NCBI RefSeq assembly: GCF_041642155.1
Contig: NZ_JBEPWZ010000001.1
Coordinates: forward strand, 3,507-67,506
DNA from: Fodinibius sp.
GTDB taxonomy: Bacteria > Bacteroidota > Rhodothermia > Balneolales > Balneolaceae
Direction: 5' to 3'
DNA length: 64,000 nucleotides
Every line of letters starts with the position of its first letter. Positions within the stretch are counted from its first letter, which is position 1. The notes beneath the pieces were generated by a model. It searched no databases. It was not told the DNA's origin and saw nothing but the letters and a program-made list of their open reading frames with translations. The translations under genes were made by a program, and so were the position numbers. Shown in pieces: positions 41,333 through 54,654 of the stretch.

Positions 41333-42334
41333 GCTATAGATAAGATATTATTAGATTAAAGTTCAGAAACCAAAATAGACAGAAAGTATACGCCCTTATC
41401 TATTTCGCTTTCAAAGAGTATGTATTCAGCAGTTTGCTTTACAATGGTACGGCCGACACCGTAAACGATGCAGCAGTAGCCCCCTGTTGATACGTTGATG
41501 AATTAGAAATCTGCCAAAACACCCACACCAACTTTCTTTTTAACGATGCAAGTGGTTACCAACAAGTCAATTCAAGACCACTGCACCCGAACTATTTCAC
41601 GGTACTGTTTCAACGTTAAGGTTAAAAAATCACGTGCAAAGACCCGTTTTTTAGGTTATAACAGTTTCGTTTAATTTCACCGGGTGGACAACCAAAAACC
41701 CTTCCTGTATGTTATAAAGATACTGCTTGAATGGGTTTACCTTACCGGTCCCATTAGTACCAAGTATTTACGGCTATAACATATTCACGCTTGTTCAACA
41801 GATAAGCTAAAATCTTCTTTTACCTGCACGAAAAGGTTTAAGTATCATAGAACCCCTAAATACATCCATGAACATAAAAGCCTAAATAATAGTTATACCC
41901 TTTACACCTGTGTTATATAGTTGTTTGGACAACCATATTTAATGTAATAAAAAATATGAACCCTGCCAATTATTTTTTTGCTTTAAAAAGAAAACCCTGC
42001 TTATCCTTGTATTTCTATACCTCGATCTCGCCGTGAATATGAACGATCATTTAAGGTACCCCGTGGAGAGAGTCTCCCGCATGATCTCAGCCCCCCCGAT
42101 TCGACCCGTCCGGGACTCATGAAGCATCCCGGTTCTTTATAATCCTCTCCGGTAGGCCTCCGGAAGAAATCCAATAAATCGTTTTATCAACTCATCTATC
42201 TTCCTATCTTAGGATACGGGAGGAATTTGAATTCGTGAAAATGCAGAAATTGGCCAACCAAACGGTTTTGCAAAGTCCTCTACGAAACAGATATTCTCTT
42301 TACTTTCTGTTTAATTGTAATTATCGACCGCGTT

Positions 42335-43375
42335 ATGAGACCTGTGGATACCTCAATCGAACGTACGATACCATTCAGTACCGATCCCGCCCTTCGCCGG
42401 CGCTATATGATCCTGGACAGGGATATACCGGGCAACATGCGGTGGGGACTGCTGCTTGAAGAGCTCGATAAGCTGGCCGAAGATATCGCTCTTGACTATG
42501 TGCACCAGTTTGAGCCCGGGGGACGCGTGGTTACGGCCGCGGTTGATGATATTGCCCTGCACGTGCCCGGAGATATCAACAAGGATGTCTTCCTGCGGGC
42601 GCGCATTAATTATGTGGGACGCACGTCTATGGAAGTTGGCATTCGCGTGGACCAGGACAAGGAGGCCAGGCACTCGCTGGCAGCCTGCTATTTTACGATG
42701 GTGGCCCGGACCGGCAGGGACAATGATGCGGAGAGCCTGCCCATTCCGCCCCTGGAATATAAGAGCGCCATCGAAAAGGAGCGGTACGAAGCGGCTATTA
42801 AGCGCCGCAAAGCGTATCGCGAGCAGATCGACGCGCTGGAAGACCCGCCGAGCAAAGAGGAGTTCCACCACCTGCGGGCGCTGCACAAAGCGCAGGAAAA
42901 AGAGGATTTTGACGGGTTACTGGTCGGAAACCTGATACGGAACAGCATGGAGCGAATGTACCCGGATCAGGAAAATGTGCCCAAAAAGATTTTCGGCGGG
43001 TATGTCATTCGCCGCGCCTTTGAACTGTCATTGATGCATGCGGAAGAAATCGCCACCCACCGGCCGGTGTTTGTGCGGGTGAACCGCATTAACTTCCTGC
43101 AGCCCATCCGTATTGGCGATAAGCTGGATTTTACCAGCCGGATCGTCTACACCGGTGAGACGTCCATCAGTATTGAAATTGATATTGAACGCACCAGCCT
43201 GGACAAGGTGACCCGGGCCCTTTCCAATACCTGTGTTTTCACGTTTGTGAATGTTGATCATAAAATGCAGCCCCAGCCGGTGCCCAAGGTATATCCGACT
43301 ACCTACGCCGAGGACGAGCGATACCTGAAAGCACGCCGTCGCCGTAAAGAACACCTCATTAATATCGGAAAGTAA
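42335..43375 (+). CDS. acyl-CoA thioesterase (double hot-dog fold)
   Basis: 346 aa. Two hot-dog-like halves (VVTAAVDDIALHVP...; FGGYVIRRAFELSLMHAEE...VNRINFLQPIRIGD). Confidence 0.75.
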   Translation: MRPVDTSIERTIPFSTDPALRRRYMILDRDIPGNMRWGLLLEELDKLAEDIALDYVHQFEPGGRVVTAAVDDIALHVPGDINKDVFLRARINYVGRTSMEVGIRVDQDKEARHSLAACYFTMVARTGRDNDAESLPIPPLEYKSAIEKERYEAAIKRRKAYREQIDALEDPPSKEEFHHLRALHKAQEKEDFDGLLVGNLIRNSMERMYPDQENVPKKIFGGYVIRRAFELSLMHAEEIATHRPVFVRVNRINFLQPIRIGDKLDFTSRIVYTGETSISIEIDIERTSLDKVTRALSNTCVFTFVNVDHKMQPQPVPKVYPTTYAEDERYLKARRRRKEHLINIGK

Positions 43376-44112: not shown

Positions 44113-44682
44113 ATGGATACGAAAAAAAACTTTCTCATAAAAAACATGGTGTGCAGTCACTGTGCAGAGGTACTGAAGGAAAAACTGGAAGAAAACGGTT
44201 TCCGTGTACAAAAAATTGAGCTGGGGGAACTGCAGCTGGCGGGACCGGTCGATCAGACTGCCTATAAACGGCTGGTGTCGGTCGTGCGCAAAAACGGCTT
44301 TGACATCATCAATGATGAAGCCAGCCAGATCGTAGAGCGTATCAAACATCTTATTATTGATCACATCCGTTCCAGCGAGCCGCTTAACGGCAACCTCTCG
44401 GAATATCTTTCGGACCGTATCCACAAGGATTATCAGCAGCTCAGCCGGCTATTTTCCGCGGTAGAGGGAAAGTCCATCGAACGCTATTTCATCCTCCAAA
44501 AAATTGAGCGGGCTAAAGAACTCATCGTCTATGGCGAAAAGACACTCAGCGAAATAGCCTATGAATTGGACTACAGCAGCCAGCAGCATTTTTCGCGACA
44601 GTTTAAGAAAGAAACCGGCCTCGCGCCCTCTCATTTCAAGAATATAAAGGAGAACAAACGCACCTCCATCGATCAGCTGTAA
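44113..44682 (+). CDS. AraC-family transcriptional regulator with N-terminal heavy-metal-associated (HMA) domain
   Basis: 189 aa. N-terminal ferredoxin-like HMA with metal motif IKNMVCSHCAEVL. C-terminal AraC HTH (LSEIAYELDYSSQQHFSRQFKKETGLAPSHF). Confidence 0.8.
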   Translation: MDTKKNFLIKNMVCSHCAEVLKEKLEENGFRVQKIELGELQLAGPVDQTAYKRLVSVVRKNGFDIINDEASQIVERIKHLIIDHIRSSEPLNGNLSEYLSDRIHKDYQQLSRLFSAVEGKSIERYFILQKIERAKELIVYGEKTLSEIAYELDYSSQQHFSRQFKKETGLAPSHFKNIKENKRTSIDQL

Positions 44683-44762
44683 CATAATCCTGCACAAGAT
44701 ATACATAAAGATATAAGACCGTTCCCCGCTCTATCCCTATCTTACGGCCTGAATTTCTGGGG

Positions 44763-44897
44763 CTTTGAAAAGCCAGTCCCGAAGCATCGGGAAATATCAA
44801 AGCCTGAGCGCCTTCAAAACCACCCCGTATAAAGCATATGTGAGGATATTGGATGCGCGAAAATACAGAGATTGAATCACAAAACTGATTTTCAAAG
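44763..44897 (+). repeat. 135-bp hairpin-containing upstream cassette, copy A (5' of P1B ATPase)
   Basis: Distal 40-nt core CTTTGAAAAGCCAGTCCCGAAGCATCGGGAAATATCAAAG (44763-44802) contains hairpin TCCCGA-AGCA-TCGGGA. Proximal box TTTTCAAAG (44889-44897) is the inverted repeat of the first 9 nt. The ATG follows 17 nt later. Confidence 0.8.
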
Positions 44898-44914
44898 CTC
44901 TCTTTAAATACATA

Positions 44915-46861
44915 ATGGACCTTATTATCGCATTTATAAAAAAATATAAGGAAGCAGTCATCAGCGGCCTGTTGCTTGCCGCGGCGCTAACCGTCCAGTA
45001 CGGTGCCGATTTTCCCAGCCGGCATTACCTGTACCTCCCGTTGTATGGCCTCTCGTACCTGGCAGTAGGGGGACCCGTTTGGCTGAAGGCTTTTTATTCC
45101 ATAAAAGACGGCACAATATTCAGTGAATTCCTGCTAATGGGTATTGCTACCGTCGGGGCTTTTGCCATCGGTGAGTATGCCGAAGGGGTCGCCGTCATGC
45201 TTTTCTATATGATCGGCGAGTATGCCCAGCACGGGGCGGTGCACCGCGCCAAACATTCCATCAGGAAGCTGATCAATCAACAGCCGGATATAGCGGCGGT
45301 CGAACGGGGGGGCTCTACCGAGCAAGTCCATCCCTCAGCAGTTGAAAAGGGGGAGGTTATCCGGGTCAGGCCCGGAGAAAAAGTACCGCTGGACGGCGAA
45401 CTGCTCACGGAAAGAGCCTCCTTTAATACCGCAGCCCTGACGGGGGAATCCAAACCAATGGCACGCAAAGCCGGAGAAGAGGTCTGGGCGGGGTCCATCA
45501 ACCAGGACGTGCCGGCACGTATTAGAGTCACCAGCGATTACGAGGATACCAGGCTGTCCCATATCCTTACCATGGTTCAGGAGGCGGCCCGGCGCAAGGC
45601 ACCCACCCAGCGGTTTATGACAAAGTTTGCAAAAATCTATACCCCGGTGGTCGTGTGGCTGGCGGCAGCACTGACCTTTGTTCCCTATCTCGTTGTGGAT
45701 GATTACGTGTTCCAGGATTGGTTTTATCGTGCACTCATTTTCCTCGTTGTTTCCTGTCCCTGCGGACTGGTTATCTCCATTCCCCTCGGTTACTTTGGCG
45801 GCATTGGTGCGGCCTCGCAAAACGGTATCCTGCTCAAGGGTTCCGACTTCCTGGATCAGCTTCGAAAGATGACGATGCTGTTCATGGACAAAACCGGAAC
45901 CCTTACCGAAGGCACCTTTGAGGTGCGGGAGGTCCACCCCCGGAACGGCTTTGACCGGGAGGAGCTTTTGCGGTTAGCGGCTTCCCTGGAACAGCACTCC
46001 ACTCATCCGATCGCAAAAGCTATTTTGGACTATGCGACCGGACAACCGTTGCAACCGGTGCAGCGGCAGCAGGAGAGTCCGGGCAAGGGGTTGCAGGGAG
46101 AGGTCGGCACGCGCAACATACTGGTAGGAAACAGCGACTGGCTGGCCGAACATGGTGTAACGTACAGCGGAAATGGATTAGATGAAGCCTATACATACGT
46201 GCATGTGGCTATTGAGGGAGTCCACGCCGGAACCATCGGTATTGCCGATCGAATAAAAGACGACAGTAAAAAAGCAATCGAAGAGCTTCGCGGGCTGGGA
46301 ATCAGCGAGCTTATCATGCTGTCCGGCGACAACCAGGAAGTGGTCGATGGGATAGCCCGGAAACTGGGACTGGACAAGGCGTATGGCAATCTGCTACCGG
46401 ACGAAAAATACCGGCATGTGGAGGAGGCGTTGCAACCGGGCCGTACGGTTGGCTTTATCGGGGACGGCGTAAATGATGCCCCGGTCATCACCCTCGCCGA
46501 TATCGGCATCGCCATGGGAGGGATCGGTTCCGATGCCACCGTAGAGACTGCGGACGTCGTCATTCAGACCGACCAGCCGTCCAAAATACCCCTGGCCATC
46601 GATATTGCTCAATTCACGCACCGCGTGGTATGGCAGAACATAGGTTTTGCCCTGGGGATTAAAATCCTGGTCATGGTCATGGCTACGCTGGGGATGGCAA
46701 CTATGTGGGAGGCCATTTTTGCGGATGTGGGAGTCGCCCTCCTCGCTATTGCGAACGCCATCCGCATTCAATACCATTACACGGATGAAGAATTCAGCCT
46801 TAGTCCCCCTGCGGATCCTTCAACAAAAGAAGAACCCGCCCAGGCTGACTGCTGCTGTTAG
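44915..46861 (+). CDS. heavy-metal-translocating P1B-type ATPase (Zn/Cd/Pb-type CPC pump), without N-terminal HMA domain
   Basis: 648 aa. TM CPC motif VSCPCGLVIS, phosphorylation site DKTGTLT, STHPIAKA, GDGVNDAP, Cys-rich tail AQADCCC. Confidence 0.95.
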   Translation: MDLIIAFIKKYKEAVISGLLLAAALTVQYGADFPSRHYLYLPLYGLSYLAVGGPVWLKAFYSIKDGTIFSEFLLMGIATVGAFAIGEYAEGVAVMLFYMIGEYAQHGAVHRAKHSIRKLINQQPDIAAVERGGSTEQVHPSAVEKGEVIRVRPGEKVPLDGELLTERASFNTAALTGESKPMARKAGEEVWAGSINQDVPARIRVTSDYEDTRLSHILTMVQEAARRKAPTQRFMTKFAKIYTPVVVWLAAALTFVPYLVVDDYVFQDWFYRALIFLVVSCPCGLVISIPLGYFGGIGAASQNGILLKGSDFLDQLRKMTMLFMDKTGTLTEGTFEVREVHPRNGFDREELLRLAASLEQHSTHPIAKAILDYATGQPLQPVQRQQESPGKGLQGEVGTRNILVGNSDWLAEHGVTYSGNGLDEAYTYVHVAIEGVHAGTIGIADRIKDDSKKAIEELRGLGISELIMLSGDNQEVVDGIARKLGLDKAYGNLLPDEKYRHVEEALQPGRTVGFIGDGVNDAPVITLADIGIAMGGIGSDATVETADVVIQTDQPSKIPLAIDIAQFTHRVVWQNIGFALGIKILVMVMATLGMATMWEAIFADVGVALLAIANAIRIQYHYTDEEFSLSPPADPSTKEEPAQADCCC

Positions 46862-51588: not shown

Positions 51589-53025
51589 TCACTTTCCCAT
51601 TCCATATTGCTGTCCGGGCAGCAGGGGCTGCAGCCAGGCCATCTCCTGTTCTCCTTCCACAAAGTAGTTTTCTTTACGTTTCGAGGAGATCACTTTGGCC
51701 CGTACATACAGCTCATCTCCCTGAAACTCATAGCTTGCCTCATTACCTGTCGTCTCCTGCAGTACCGTCCCGATATTTTCGCTGTATTGCCGGGTTCGGT
51801 CTTCCCGCACCTGGCCCTCCGCATCCACATACGGTTCACTCGACGGGTCGTATCCCTCACGGGTGCCGATAAAGCGGATCGTATATTCCACATCCTCTTC
51901 CGGATCGACCTTTACCGTGTACCTGCTGCCGTCCGAATAGATCTCCTGCATTTCCACACCACTGCTGGCATAAAAATCCCCTTTTTCCAGTGCGCGCACG
52001 ATATGTTCGGGCGTAAGGTATCGCGACCGGACCCTGACCCATCCTCTGCCAGGCCTCGCCGTCTCGGAATCACTTTCTTCATAGTGGTGGGCATCGTCAA
52101 CCGCTAGCCCGTAAACCGGGGGGAGATCGAGTTCTCCCAGCCGTCTAGTCAGCACAATGTCCCACACCCGGTCCAATCCCTTACTACCGTCATCGCTGCC
52201 AAAGTTGAGAACCCCTCGATGCCCGTTATAGACCTCAAAGAGCCGCAGGTTTTCGACCGGGGCCATGTCTTCCGCAGTGACTGCCTGGCCAAAATTGGGG
52301 TGATTCAGATGGGGTAGCATGTCCCGTCCCGTTTCCTTGCGCTGCTCCATTACCGCATCCATATTAAGGCGGATCGTCTCTTCGACGGTCTCCCCGCTCC
52401 GGGGCTCAATAAGGTCCCTGATATTGGTCGCGTTTACATGGATCACATGCTGGCTTTCGGTAATCTCCTCGGAATCAATCAGCTGAAACCGGCCGGATTG
52501 CTCAAACAGGGCCCGAACCTCGTCCAGGGGCTTGAGTCGTACCTCCAGCTCGCCATCCACCTGGCGGGTTTCCACCCACTCATCACCGAACCGCTCCCGG
52601 TACAGCTCATAGACCTCCATACCGCCGCCCCTCCCGGCAAGCGGGTTGGTTTCGGGATTGATCCATCTTTTCCCCCGCTGCAGGATGTTGTGATCGGAGA
52701 GCGCAAGGAAGTGATAGCCGTGTTCATAATACCACTGGGTCGCCACCTCCGGAAACTGGTCGCCATCGCTCCAGAGTGTATGGGTATGCAGGTTGCCCTT
52801 CCACCAGTAATAGCCGTTTTCATCCGGCTCAGGGGGATCGTACTGTCCCGCGTCAGAACGAAAACTATAGTCGACCTTCTTGTGCGTGTGGTCAGCGGTG
52901 TGCTCATGGTCGTGGTTGTGGTCATACTCATGAGTATGACCGCTCTGTCCGCACACCACCTCTGCCTGCAGCAAAAGCACCAGACCGCCAAGGGCGGACA
53001 TCAAAATAACAAATGACTGTTTCAT
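51589..53025 (-). CDS. secreted PHP-domain (CehA/McbA-like) metallohydrolase with His-rich N-terminal tract
   Basis: 478 aa. Signal peptide MKQSFVILMSALGGLVLLLQAEV, His-rich GHTHEYDHNHDHEHTADHTHKK, PHP motif GNLHTHTLWSDGD...ALSDHN. Confidence 0.7.
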   Translation of the reverse strand: MKQSFVILMSALGGLVLLLQAEVVCGQSGHTHEYDHNHDHEHTADHTHKKVDYSFRSDAGQYDPPEPDENGYYWWKGNLHTHTLWSDGDQFPEVATQWYYEHGYHFLALSDHNILQRGKRWINPETNPLAGRGGGMEVYELYRERFGDEWVETRQVDGELEVRLKPLDEVRALFEQSGRFQLIDSEEITESQHVIHVNATNIRDLIEPRSGETVEETIRLNMDAVMEQRKETGRDMLPHLNHPNFGQAVTAEDMAPVENLRLFEVYNGHRGVLNFGSDDGSKGLDRVWDIVLTRRLGELDLPPVYGLAVDDAHHYEESDSETARPGRGWVRVRSRYLTPEHIVRALEKGDFYASSGVEMQEIYSDGSRYTVKVDPEEDVEYTIRFIGTREGYDPSSEPYVDAEGQVREDRTRQYSENIGTVLQETTGNEASYEFQGDELYVRAKVISSKRKENYFVEGEQEMAWLQPLLPGQQYGMGK

Positions 53026-53079
53026 AGCTGTTTTTTATAACTTTATTGGATATTGCTAGTTAAAAGAACTTCTATAGGG

Positions 53080-53214
53080 CTTTGCAAAGCTGTTCTTGTG
53101 GGCAAGCTCTGTATTTTCGCGAATTCAGAATCCTCATTTATGCCTTATATTCAGCTGTTTTGAATGTGCTCAGACTTTGATATTTCCCGATACTTCGGGA
53201 CTGGTTTTTCAAAG
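53080..53214 (-). repeat. 135-bp hairpin-containing upstream cassette, copy P (5' of PHP-domain gene)
   Basis: The reverse complement of 53175-53214 is CTTTGAAAAACCAGTCCCGAAGTATCGGGAAATATCAAAG (38/40 identical to copy A). Proximal palindromic box CTTTGCAAAG is at 53080-53089, 54 nt from the start codon. Confidence 0.8.
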
Positions 53215-53401
53215 TTCTCTGCTGTTTTATTCACCAGTCCAGAATGGATTGGTCCTCCGCCCTGATGGTCGTGGAATAGAAAAGATAATTTCAGGATGGT
53301 AACCCGGCCAAACTAATCACAATGGGTAGTCAAAATAAAATAAATAATAAAGGACTATCAGGTCCTGCAACCCCATGTAACTTTGAGCCGTGACGGGCAT
53401 C

Positions 53402-54340
53402 CTACTTGTTCGCGCTTTTTCCACCGAGACTCATGGTGGGATAATCAGACATCGCATATGTTACCCGGGCATTTTTATTGATATCGGTTACCTTCATAAC
53501 GGTCTTGTCCCCGCTTTGCCGGTCTTCGGAGGTCATTTCCATCATCATGCCGTAGGGATAGTTGTCCGGAATTTTGCCCCTCACCTGCTTGGCATTGGCG
53601 TTCGCCTTGAACATATTCTGCATTCCAAGCGTCTCATCCCGGCTCACCCACACTTCGACTACGCCATCGCTGTTTTCCGACCGGTAGCCATCACATTCAT
53701 AGCCCTGAATAGTTTTGTTTCCGATTTTGGTGTACCCCTGCCACTCGTCTACTTCATCCCAGTCTGTTTCTTCCGCCTGACGGGTTTCGGCACTGCTCTC
53801 TGGATGTTCCAACGCCTGTTTCCAGTCGTAGGCAAAAGAAAATTTGTCATTTTCATTTTCCATCAGCATCAGCATGGCGGCGTTGTTAAAATCATAGACA
53901 ATAAACAGGTCTCCCTCATCCTGACTCATGCCCTCCCCGGAAAAAAAAGTGCCGGTATACCTTTCGTCTGTATTGAAATGCATCTCCATGACGACCGGCG
54001 GGTCGGACTCCCCATCTTCTCTAATGGTTTCAATTTCCATCGTCGTAATGGTGTCAAAATGATAGGCATCCTCTGTTTCCACATTGCTGCCCATAGAAAA
54101 AGGTACGCCCATGCCCCCGTACGCGCTGTCGGAGGATATATCCCCGAAAACAGCATTCCACGAATCCTCCACCATCTGGCGGGAAGCTTTTTCTACCTGG
54201 TCGCTTAGCTTTTCTTCCGCTTTTTTCGATGCTGCCTCTTTCGCCTTGTCCTTCAGCCGGTTGAATAGCTGGGCTTCAGCATCAATAACAAAGGTGACCG
54301 ACATCAGGCTGGCTGCCAGTATTATAATAAGATATCTCAT
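53402..54340 (-). CDS. secreted acidic protein, DUF4412-like (function unknown)
   Basis: Signal peptide MRYLIIILAASLMSVTFVIDAEAQ from the Met at 54340 (ORF open to 54454). The GYECDGYRSENSDGVVEVWVS block is reminiscent of DUF4412. The antisense ORF 53390-54208 was rejected. Confidence 0.5.
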   Translation of the reverse strand: MRYLIIILAASLMSVTFVIDAEAQLFNRLKDKAKEAASKKAEEKLSDQVEKASRQMVEDSWNAVFGDISSDSAYGGMGVPFSMGSNVETEDAYHFDTITTMEIETIREDGESDPPVVMEMHFNTDERYTGTFFSGEGMSQDEGDLFIVYDFNNAAMLMLMENENDKFSFAYDWKQALEHPESSAETRQAEETDWDEVDEWQGYTKIGNKTIQGYECDGYRSENSDGVVEVWVSRDETLGMQNMFKANANAKQVRGKIPDNYPYGMMMEMTSEDRQSGDKTVMKVTDINKNARVTYAMSDYPTMSLGGKSANK

Positions 54341-54370
54341 GATATACTCTCTTTTTTTAATTTTTGAGAG

Positions 54371-54505
54371 CTTTGCAAAACCGTTCTTTTGACCAATTCC
54401 GGCGTTATCGATCGGTTGAAGTCCCCACATATAGGGTATATGCTGCGATTCCAACCTCCCCGAGGCCTTGACTTTTCCCGATGCTTCGGGACTGATTTTG
54501 CAAAG
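54371..54505 (-). repeat. 135-bp hairpin-containing upstream cassette, copy Q (5' of DUF4412-like gene)
   Basis: The reverse complement of 54466-54505 is CTTTGCAAAATCAGTCCCGAAGCATCGGGAAAAGTCAAGG (34/40 identical to copy A). Proximal box CTTTGCAAAA is at 54371-54380, 30 nt from the start codon. The proximal flank CAAAGCTCTC is shared with copy A. Confidence 0.8.
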
Positions 54506-54654
54506 ATTCTCATTCTTTTGAACCTGTAATCTACAAAAGATACGATTAAATAAAAGACAAATTGTCGGGTATCACTAAAATATCACTACCTTTGCCACTG
54601 CAACACATAATTTCGGTTCTTTGACGTTAAATTATTTTGTATCTTTCATTACTT

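Follow-up and report, generated by a model that had tools for sequence, protein, structure and literature searches.

The structured cassettes that stand in front of three genes in the window, the 64-kb stretch of Fodinibius sp. DNA analysed here, are very probably old copies of a MITE that is abundant in Balneolaceae and into which a short hairpin was nested later. The family is new, and its kind is well known. A very abundant MITE family is documented here in Balneolota, a phylum for which the literature searched describes no MITEs: no paper joining MITEs with the term Balneol- was retrieved, and none of the Fodinibius papers deals with repeats. For annotation, the structured element in front of the metal ATPase gene is to be read as a transposon relic and not as a riboswitch, which removes a tempting false positive. 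Balneolota repeats will furthermore fragment assemblies and confound RNA-motif searches in these halophiles.

Three full-length copies of about 147 nt each and one partial copy are present in the window. Copy A (44757-44903, + strand; 145 bits with the covariance model) is a full-length, decayed MITE copy that shows about 75% identity to consensus-like metagenome copies. Copy P (53074-53220, - strand; 141 bits) lies 5' of a gene for a His-rich secreted PHP/CehA-McbA-like protein. Copy Q (54365-54505, - strand; 150 bits over 54365-54511) is placed within the putative 5' untranslated region of a DUF4412 gene and, with F. roseus as the reference, has a deletion of AAGAGGG, the outermost part of the 5' inverted repeat. 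The original prediction had described three copies, each spanning 135 nt from CTTTG to CAAAG, with core identities of 38/40 and 34/40 and ending 17-54 nt before start codons; positions, lengths and core identities are all borne out, and the gaps measure 17, 54 and 30 nt. The 135-bp extent itself has to be revised, because the family consensus reads AGAGGG...CCCTCT: homology extends a further 6 nt on either side (44757-44903 +, 53074-53220 -, 54365-54511 -), and the 3' end of copy A lies 11 nt from the ATG of the Zn/Cd-type P1B ATPase gene. The middle of the unit had been called poorly conserved; it consists of the paired arms of a long hairpin, and copies A and P are 76% identical overall. Outside the shared hairpin, the overall identity among copies A, P and Q is 61-76%. 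With up to three mismatches, the core CAGTCCCGAAGYATCGGGAAA occurs at three sites only in the window, compared with an expectation of 0 from 100 shuffles.

The three copies are thus real and unique in the window at full length, and a fourth, partial copy had been overlooked. Copy T (42213-42281, start approximate, + strand) comprises only the 3' half of the MITE, which is alignable to copies P and A, and lies 5' of a thioesterase gene (42335-43375). The covariance model match is weak and covers 42129-42281; its 5' extension to 42129 is spurious, as comparison with F. roseus indicates that only about 42213-42281 is element-derived. The interpretation of copy T as a full element with a covarying P2 was dropped, since homology is confined to the 3' half and is absent in F. 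roseus, where no such copy was found 5' of the thioesterase gene. The surrounding region (41333-42334), between a 975-aa minus-strand gene and the thioesterase gene, is about 1 kb without an ORF of at least 100 aa. All four window copies fall within 12.4 kb and each is directed at a downstream gene, an arrangement that is not significant because the background rate of that orientation is 63%. No target-site duplications are recognisable around these old window copies.

The family was characterized with a covariance model built from 5 copies and run on the window and on metagenome contigs, the latter picked by a degenerate 36-nt pattern for the conserved 3' part. The pattern matched at least 120 loci, concentrated in few samples, soda-lake sediment contigs among them. 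The model recovered at least 138 distinct copies on 82 metagenome contigs (594 kb), with up to 4 per contig. The host contigs are Balneolaceae-like: a protein from one of them shares 78% identity with a window protein across 918 residues, and an ATPase from another is 66% identical to the window ATPase. On the human gut contigs that match the pattern (L013, L020, L023, L042, L070, L085 and L092) the covariance model gave no hit, and these matches are probably chance or unrelated TTTGCAAAG-containing sequences.

The matches listed fall mainly into size classes of 142 nt and 149-150 nt, without an ORF, accompanied by internally deleted short forms of 51-124 nt. A typical copy reads AGAGGGCTTTGCAAAACC...GGTTTTGCAAAGCCCTCT, the ends being complementary over 17-18 bp and thus forming terminal inverted repeats. 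Perfect direct repeats of 3-5 nt abut the ends in 58 of the 84 full copies with both flanks among the matches listed, vs 4.4/84 expected when flanks are shuffled between copies. In the same set, the target-site duplications measure 3 nt (n = 36), 4 nt (n = 21) or 5 nt (n = 1), and the duplicated sequences are varied and AT-rich. A simple ORF caller places 136 of the 138 copies listed in intergenic DNA. Of 116 copies scored for orientation, 73 run in the same direction as the downstream gene and 43 in the opposite one (p = 0.007; crude ORF caller, matches listed); the corresponding numbers in co-directional spacers are 34 and 20, while 19 of the listed copies occupy divergent and 10 convergent spacers. 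The median distance from a listed copy to the downstream start is 198 nt. These features agree with the prokaryotic definition of a MITE as a short, non-coding element with terminal inverted repeats and flanking repeats (PMC10969869): the element is non-coding and shorter than 500 bp, its 17-18-bp inverted repeats lie in the range of about 4-30 bp, perfect flanking direct repeats accompany 58 of the 84 full copies listed, at least 138 copies are dispersed, 136 of those listed in intergenic DNA, and presence/absence at orthologous sites is observed at the Q and P loci.

The search for an autonomous insertion sequence with matching inverted repeats gave none, and no end pair enclosing an ORF was found in the ~1 Mb examined, where pairing of the inverted-repeat ends returned nothing beyond solo ends and another MITE family bounded by identical ends. 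This second short element (L086:8932-9066, L090:6718-6848, L125:10858-10992) shares the terminal inverted repeats (AGAGGGCTTTGAAATACC ... GTTTTGCAAAGCCCTCT) and has an unrelated core; one transposase may mobilise several MITE families sharing ends. The element would be moved by a DDE-type transposase acting in trans, generating 3-4-bp duplications of AT-rich intergenic targets. Three full-length insertions and one half insertion, all into gene-upstream spacers, would have taken place in the ancestor of Fodinibius sp. and F. roseus or later.

Target-site duplications together with empty sites in relatives demonstrate that the element transposes. The Q locus is empty in L133 and L135, whose DUF4412 orthologues are 81% and 78% identical: here the box TCTTTTGTAGATTAC, about 20 nt and the ribosome-binding site GGGAG are collinear, and in the window and F. 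roseus the element lies between them. The P locus is empty in L010 (protein orthologue 86% identical), where ...GGTGAATAAAA runs straight into AAGTTCTTTTAAC.... In F. roseus, copies are present 5' of both the DUF4412 and the PHP-like orthologues, without the TCCCGAAGCATCGGGA hairpin. Copy P and the F. roseus copy in the same spacer have differing flanks and 61% identity, so that their orthology is uncertain. The orthologue of copy A in F. roseus (L138 5632-5770) is identical at 82/149 positions, vs 87/96 in the upstream flank. Four-fold degenerate sites differ between the window and F. roseus by 24-30%, and copy A drifts freely, at or above the neutral rate. The suggestion in the original prediction that the cassette might be MITE-like stands: it has terminal inverted repeats and target-site duplications, its copies are numerous, and some orthologous sites are empty; the outward promoter attributed to it is unsupported, and at the DUF4412 locus a conserved promoter-like box is located 5' of the element.

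Copy A is followed by the heavy-metal P1B ATPase gene (Zn/Cd type, 44915-46861, +; Pfam and NCBIfam matches) and preceded by an AraC-family regulator gene (44113-44682, +). The 75-nt spacer between the AraC-family gene and copy A (44683-44756) shows about 91-93% identity to F. roseus, far above neutral, and probably represents the region that actually regulates the ATPase gene. It contains a motif, CTATCCCTATCTT, similar to CTATCTTCCTATCTT at 42196-42210, just 5' of copy T. The ATPase start is ATG in the window (44910-44920) and ACG in F. roseus (L138:5775-5800), with the next codons conserved; the F. roseus gene is called 74 residues shorter. Copy P is followed by the gene for the His-rich secreted protein (51589-53025), which has weak similarity to PHP/CehA-McbA metallohydrolases, and copy Q by the gene for a secreted DUF4412 protein (53402-54340), which matches an NCBI entry from Fodinibius sp. 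at 100% identity and its F. roseus counterpart at 84%. The spacer between the DUF4412 gene and copy P holds the 3'-end remnant (...ILDW*) of an enolase-superfamily dehydratase-like gene (window 53225-53300, -; L007:12040-12115). This gene is intact in L010, 5' of the PHP orthologue, and its deletion is common to the window and F. roseus.

For the three window copies, RNAalifold predicts a small and a long hairpin together with a closing helix, and the copies show compensatory changes relative to one another. The three-way-junction model derived from this fold (P1, P2, P3) was abandoned, as family members reveal P2 to be a late insertion and the ancestral fold to be a single rod. For the consensus, the fold obtained is a single rod-like hairpin with an energy of -55 kcal/mol. 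Inherited G-U pairs make the sense strand the more stable of the two strands in 78 of 82 copies among the matches listed. At least two Watson-Crick types, each in at least two copies, are found at 19 of the 55 pairs, and this covariation separates subfamilies. Paired-position states occurring in no more than two copies were taken as a proxy for recent independent mutations. Such rare states are mostly pair-breaking (other 95, A-C 31, G-U 25, Watson-Crick 22), and G-U shows no excess over A-C. The covariation that the original prediction had proposed to test is present as compensatory changes between subfamilies, while private changes mostly break pairs. Since the rare states break pairs, pairing is kept in the transposition-competent master copies and not in the inserted copies; this is the pattern of a MITE, unlike that of a cis-regulatory RNA class.

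In contrast to the freely drifting copy A, copy Q is under purifying selection in the DUF4412 5' untranslated region. With the hairpin left out, copy Q and its F. roseus orthologue differ at 8/125 positions (6%), vs 29/107 four-fold sites (27%; Fisher p = 2e-5), and on the basis of this difference copy Q has probably been exapted, i.e., co-opted as a structured leader. The constraint is four-fold stronger than at synonymous sites. On its 5' side lies the promoter-like box TCTTTTGTAGATTAC (54526-54540, -), shared without change by the window, F. roseus, L133 and L135; the TGTAGATTAC box is conserved, the window and F. roseus are identical in the promoter-like region, and a related TGTAGATTG is found about 45 nt 5' of the ATG in L008 and L009. 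The box is a putative promoter element. On the 3' side (54347-54370, -), the MITE tip CTCTC (54366-54370) faces the ribosome-binding-site-like GAGAG (54347-54351) of the DUF4412 gene. Tip and ribosome-binding site each show a suggestive lineage-specific change: the tip, CTCTC here, is CCCTC in F. roseus, and the ribosome-binding site, GAGAG here, is GGGAG both in F. roseus and in the relatives with an empty site. Counted as one event, the two changes would keep the potential for five base pairs between tip and ribosome-binding site, with a putative effect on translation. The C-rich 3' tip of copy Q would thus have two alternative partners, the G-rich tip at the 5' end of the element and the ribosome-binding site. 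A triple covariation of 5' tip, 3' tip and ribosome-binding site, considered as proof of a translational switch, was downgraded to one suggestive double change, because the window 5' tip is simply deleted. Copy Q provides a clean natural example of probable exaptation, with the insertion between a promoter-like box and a ribosome-binding site and with empty sister sites.

A 16-nt hairpin, TCCCGA-N4-TCGGGA (a perfect 6-bp inverted repeat with a 4-bp spacer), is identical or 15/16 at exactly the same position in all three full window copies and absent from the F. roseus orthologues. It reads TCCCGAAGCATCGGGA in copy A (44777-44792, +), where the F. roseus orthologue has GCATTTTGACCGGCT, and again TCCCGAAGCATCGGGA in copy Q (54476-54491, -), where F. 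roseus has TATTTTTTGTTCA; copy P carries TCCCGAAGTATCGGGA (53185-53200, -). No such hairpin is found elsewhere in the 64-kb window. The junctions are identical in A, Q and P, after CAG and before AA[A/T][A/G]TCAA. Transposition does not explain a shared hairpin in three otherwise diverged copies. Any conversion tract would have to be 19 nt or shorter, because copy Q keeps its own lineage-specific flanks. An exact scan of the hairpin core in 185,579 species genomes (one per bacterial species) yielded four chance matches in coding regions. Considered as an intrinsic terminator, the hairpin was flagged on the antisense strand only, with a poor T-tract, and its other positions are without a T-run.

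The hairpin is common in the family as a whole. Among the matches listed, 73 of 141 copies have hairpins of the type TCCCGA(A)-N4-(T)TCGGGA, between one and three per copy, located at no fewer than five positions of the MITE: about 20 (the three window copies and one other), 32, 66, 72 and 100. Comparison with the closest hairpin-less copies listed (82-97% identical) indicates replacement of native sequence and not mere insertion: 9 nt or 15 nt are replaced by 16 nt at the apex, 10 by 18 in the 5' arm and 9 by 17 in the 3' arm. At least 65 more hairpins lie outside the MITE on the same contigs, within several other repeat families, and 62 of the 65 listed are intergenic; in one of these families the first hairpin holds a second one in its loop. 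These contigs also contain three or more additional families of high-copy intergenic repeats (e.g., L024:4350-4480, L120:1790-1910, L096:8700-8820, L039:2570-2850), one with AACCCGGATATTTCACCAAGAAATT and another with CAGATTTGGCCAGATTCCG...CTATTCGCCTCAAAAGACC, each having a near-central CCCGAA-N4-TTCGGG hairpin.

Following the split from F. roseus, the hairpin would have replaced the same ~12 nt of the 5' arm in A and Q, with the same position affected in P, either by very short-tract gene conversion or by a process that writes the hairpin into imperfections of existing palindromes. Such writing could possibly be REP/RAYT-like or proceed by palindrome-loop cleavage and templated repair, with selection for a binding site as a third possibility beside conversion and writing. 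We tentatively propose, as a reading that is on balance doubtful, that a Balneolaceae process writes TCCCGA[A]-N4-[T]TCGGGA into the loops or imperfections of palindromic repeats, replacing 9-15 nt, so that the hairpin would be a nested mobile or templated module and not a by-product of gene conversion. On this reading the process would have acted at five or more MITE positions, in the loop of the hairpin's own kind in another family and, since the F. roseus split, two to three times in parallel at one position in this species, and the module is possibly functional, for example as a protein-binding site. We know of no description of a hairpin-writing process of this kind; the replacement, if it reflects a dedicated mechanism, would be a new route of bacterial repeat remodelling.

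The explanation of the cassettes as old MITE copies has to be weighed against a cis-regulatory leader, in which CUUUGA alternates between the proximal and the distal UCAAAG in a riboswitch- or thermometer-like manner, possibly in response to metal. The sense orientation of all four window copies, the RNAalifold closing helix and long hairpin with their compensatory changes, the better folding of the sense strand (78/82 among the matches listed) and the conservation of copy Q in a 5' untranslated region are all compatible with such a leader. Copy A also resembles metal riboswitches (czcD/NiCo, yybP-ykoY) in that its structured, RNA-like fold is directly followed by a gene for a heavy-metal P-type ATPase; it differs from them as a transposable repeat that has unrelated neighbour genes and occurs in both orientations. 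The switch-like leader of the original prediction does not hold at the family level, where neither a uniform position with sense orientation nor pairs selected within single copies are found: among the matches listed, 43 of 116 copies (37%) have the opposite orientation to the gene that follows, convergent spacers hold 10 copies, a median of 198 nt separates a copy from the downstream start, and only 14 of the 73 sense copies are within 60 nt of a start codon. Private mutations break the pairs, copy A drifts at or above the neutral rate, and target-site duplications and empty sites show transposition. The comparison to metal riboswitch models that had been recommended returned nothing of the kind: Rfam 15 at the gathering score has no match in the window or in three metagenome loci, and at E values up to 10 copy A gives opposite-strand chance matches only, with no metal riboswitch and no other curated RNA family. 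This reading is already refuted for the family as a whole, and overall it is extremely improbable. More generally, dozens of scattered copies with no strict orientation, which the original prediction had itself named as speaking against a regulatory role, are what is observed.

A shared operator of one regulon, another of the earlier suggestions, finds no support for the 135-bp unit. The idea is a possibility only for the 16-nt palindrome specific to the copies of this species, TCCCGA-N4-TCGGGA, which might be a species-specific operator or RNA-protein binding site recruited onto existing MITE copies and placing the ATPase, PHP-like and DUF4412 genes under one regulator, e.g., the adjacent AraC-family protein or a metal sensor. 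Its identity, or 15/16 identity, at exactly the same position in copies otherwise 61-76% identical, its absence from the orthologous F. roseus copies and from the rest of the window, and its 6-bp inverted repeat with 4-bp spacer, the typical form of a dimeric site, argue for recruitment. Against it, the hairpin occurs at four or more other positions in MITE copies and in other repeat families of related organisms with no gene link, no functional link is demonstrated among the three downstream genes in the 64 kb of genome seen, and no regulator is tied to the palindrome; the operator is therefore considered unlikely, less so than the leader. An even smaller weight, similar to that of the leader, is given to the alternative that the element is no DDE-type MITE and that a RAYT (Y1, IS200/IS605-like) transposase moves it as a palindromic repeat of the REP/REPIN type. 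The element is indeed a long hairpin-forming intergenic repeat of very high density, and its small GC-rich hairpin is similar in size to a REP unit and, like one, serves as a mosaic building block in several repeat families. Single-strand Y1 transposition, however, is not known to make terminal inverted repeats or target duplications, and the 142-nt unit has clear terminal inverted repeats, 3-4-bp target duplications and no GTAG-type flank adjoining the hairpin.

The MITE family shares further traits with known bacterial repeats. REP/BIME/REPIN sequences of Proteobacteria likewise have a 16-18-nt GC-rich hairpin with a conserved stem and variable loop and modular intergenic reuse; here, in contrast, a conserved GTAG flank is missing, 9-15 nt of the host element give way to the hairpin, which does not simply stand beside other units, and the carrier is 142 nt long with target duplications. 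IS5-superfamily-derived MITEs (IS1031/ISL2-type groups in bacteria; Tourist/PIF-Harbinger in eukaryotes) are possible kin, as a lead only. They share the 3-bp (sometimes 4-bp) AT-rich target duplication, the G/A-rich inverted-repeat tip and the near-complete foldback, whereas the targets of the Balneolaceae MITE are not restricted to TNA/TWA and no transposase with matching ends was found in ~1 Mb. Correia elements (CREE/NEMIS) of Neisseria, the bacterial MITEs studied in most depth, are similarly non-coding and ~100-155 bp long, have terminal inverted repeats, duplicate a short target, occur in hundreds of copies that are intergenic as here, and are often transcribed together with their neighbours into a long hairpin with the potential to change mRNA processing or expression (in part PMC10969869). 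The two have no sequence similarity, and the host phylum differs (Balneolota). The target duplication is TA in Correia elements and 3-4 bp of no fixed sequence here, and the inverted repeats are ~26 bp and 17-18 bp, respectively; for the promoter, IHF site and RNase III cleavage of Correia elements, no counterpart is shown in the Balneolaceae MITE.

The spacer 5' of the 66%-identical ATPase orthologue on a metagenome contig (L031:1-1240) contains three MITE copies or fragments. One of them, at about 1010-1075, is an internally deleted sense copy that starts with AGAGCTTTGAAAAGCC, as does window copy A. Ancient orthology to copy A is one possible origin of this deleted copy, an independent hit in a favoured spacer another.
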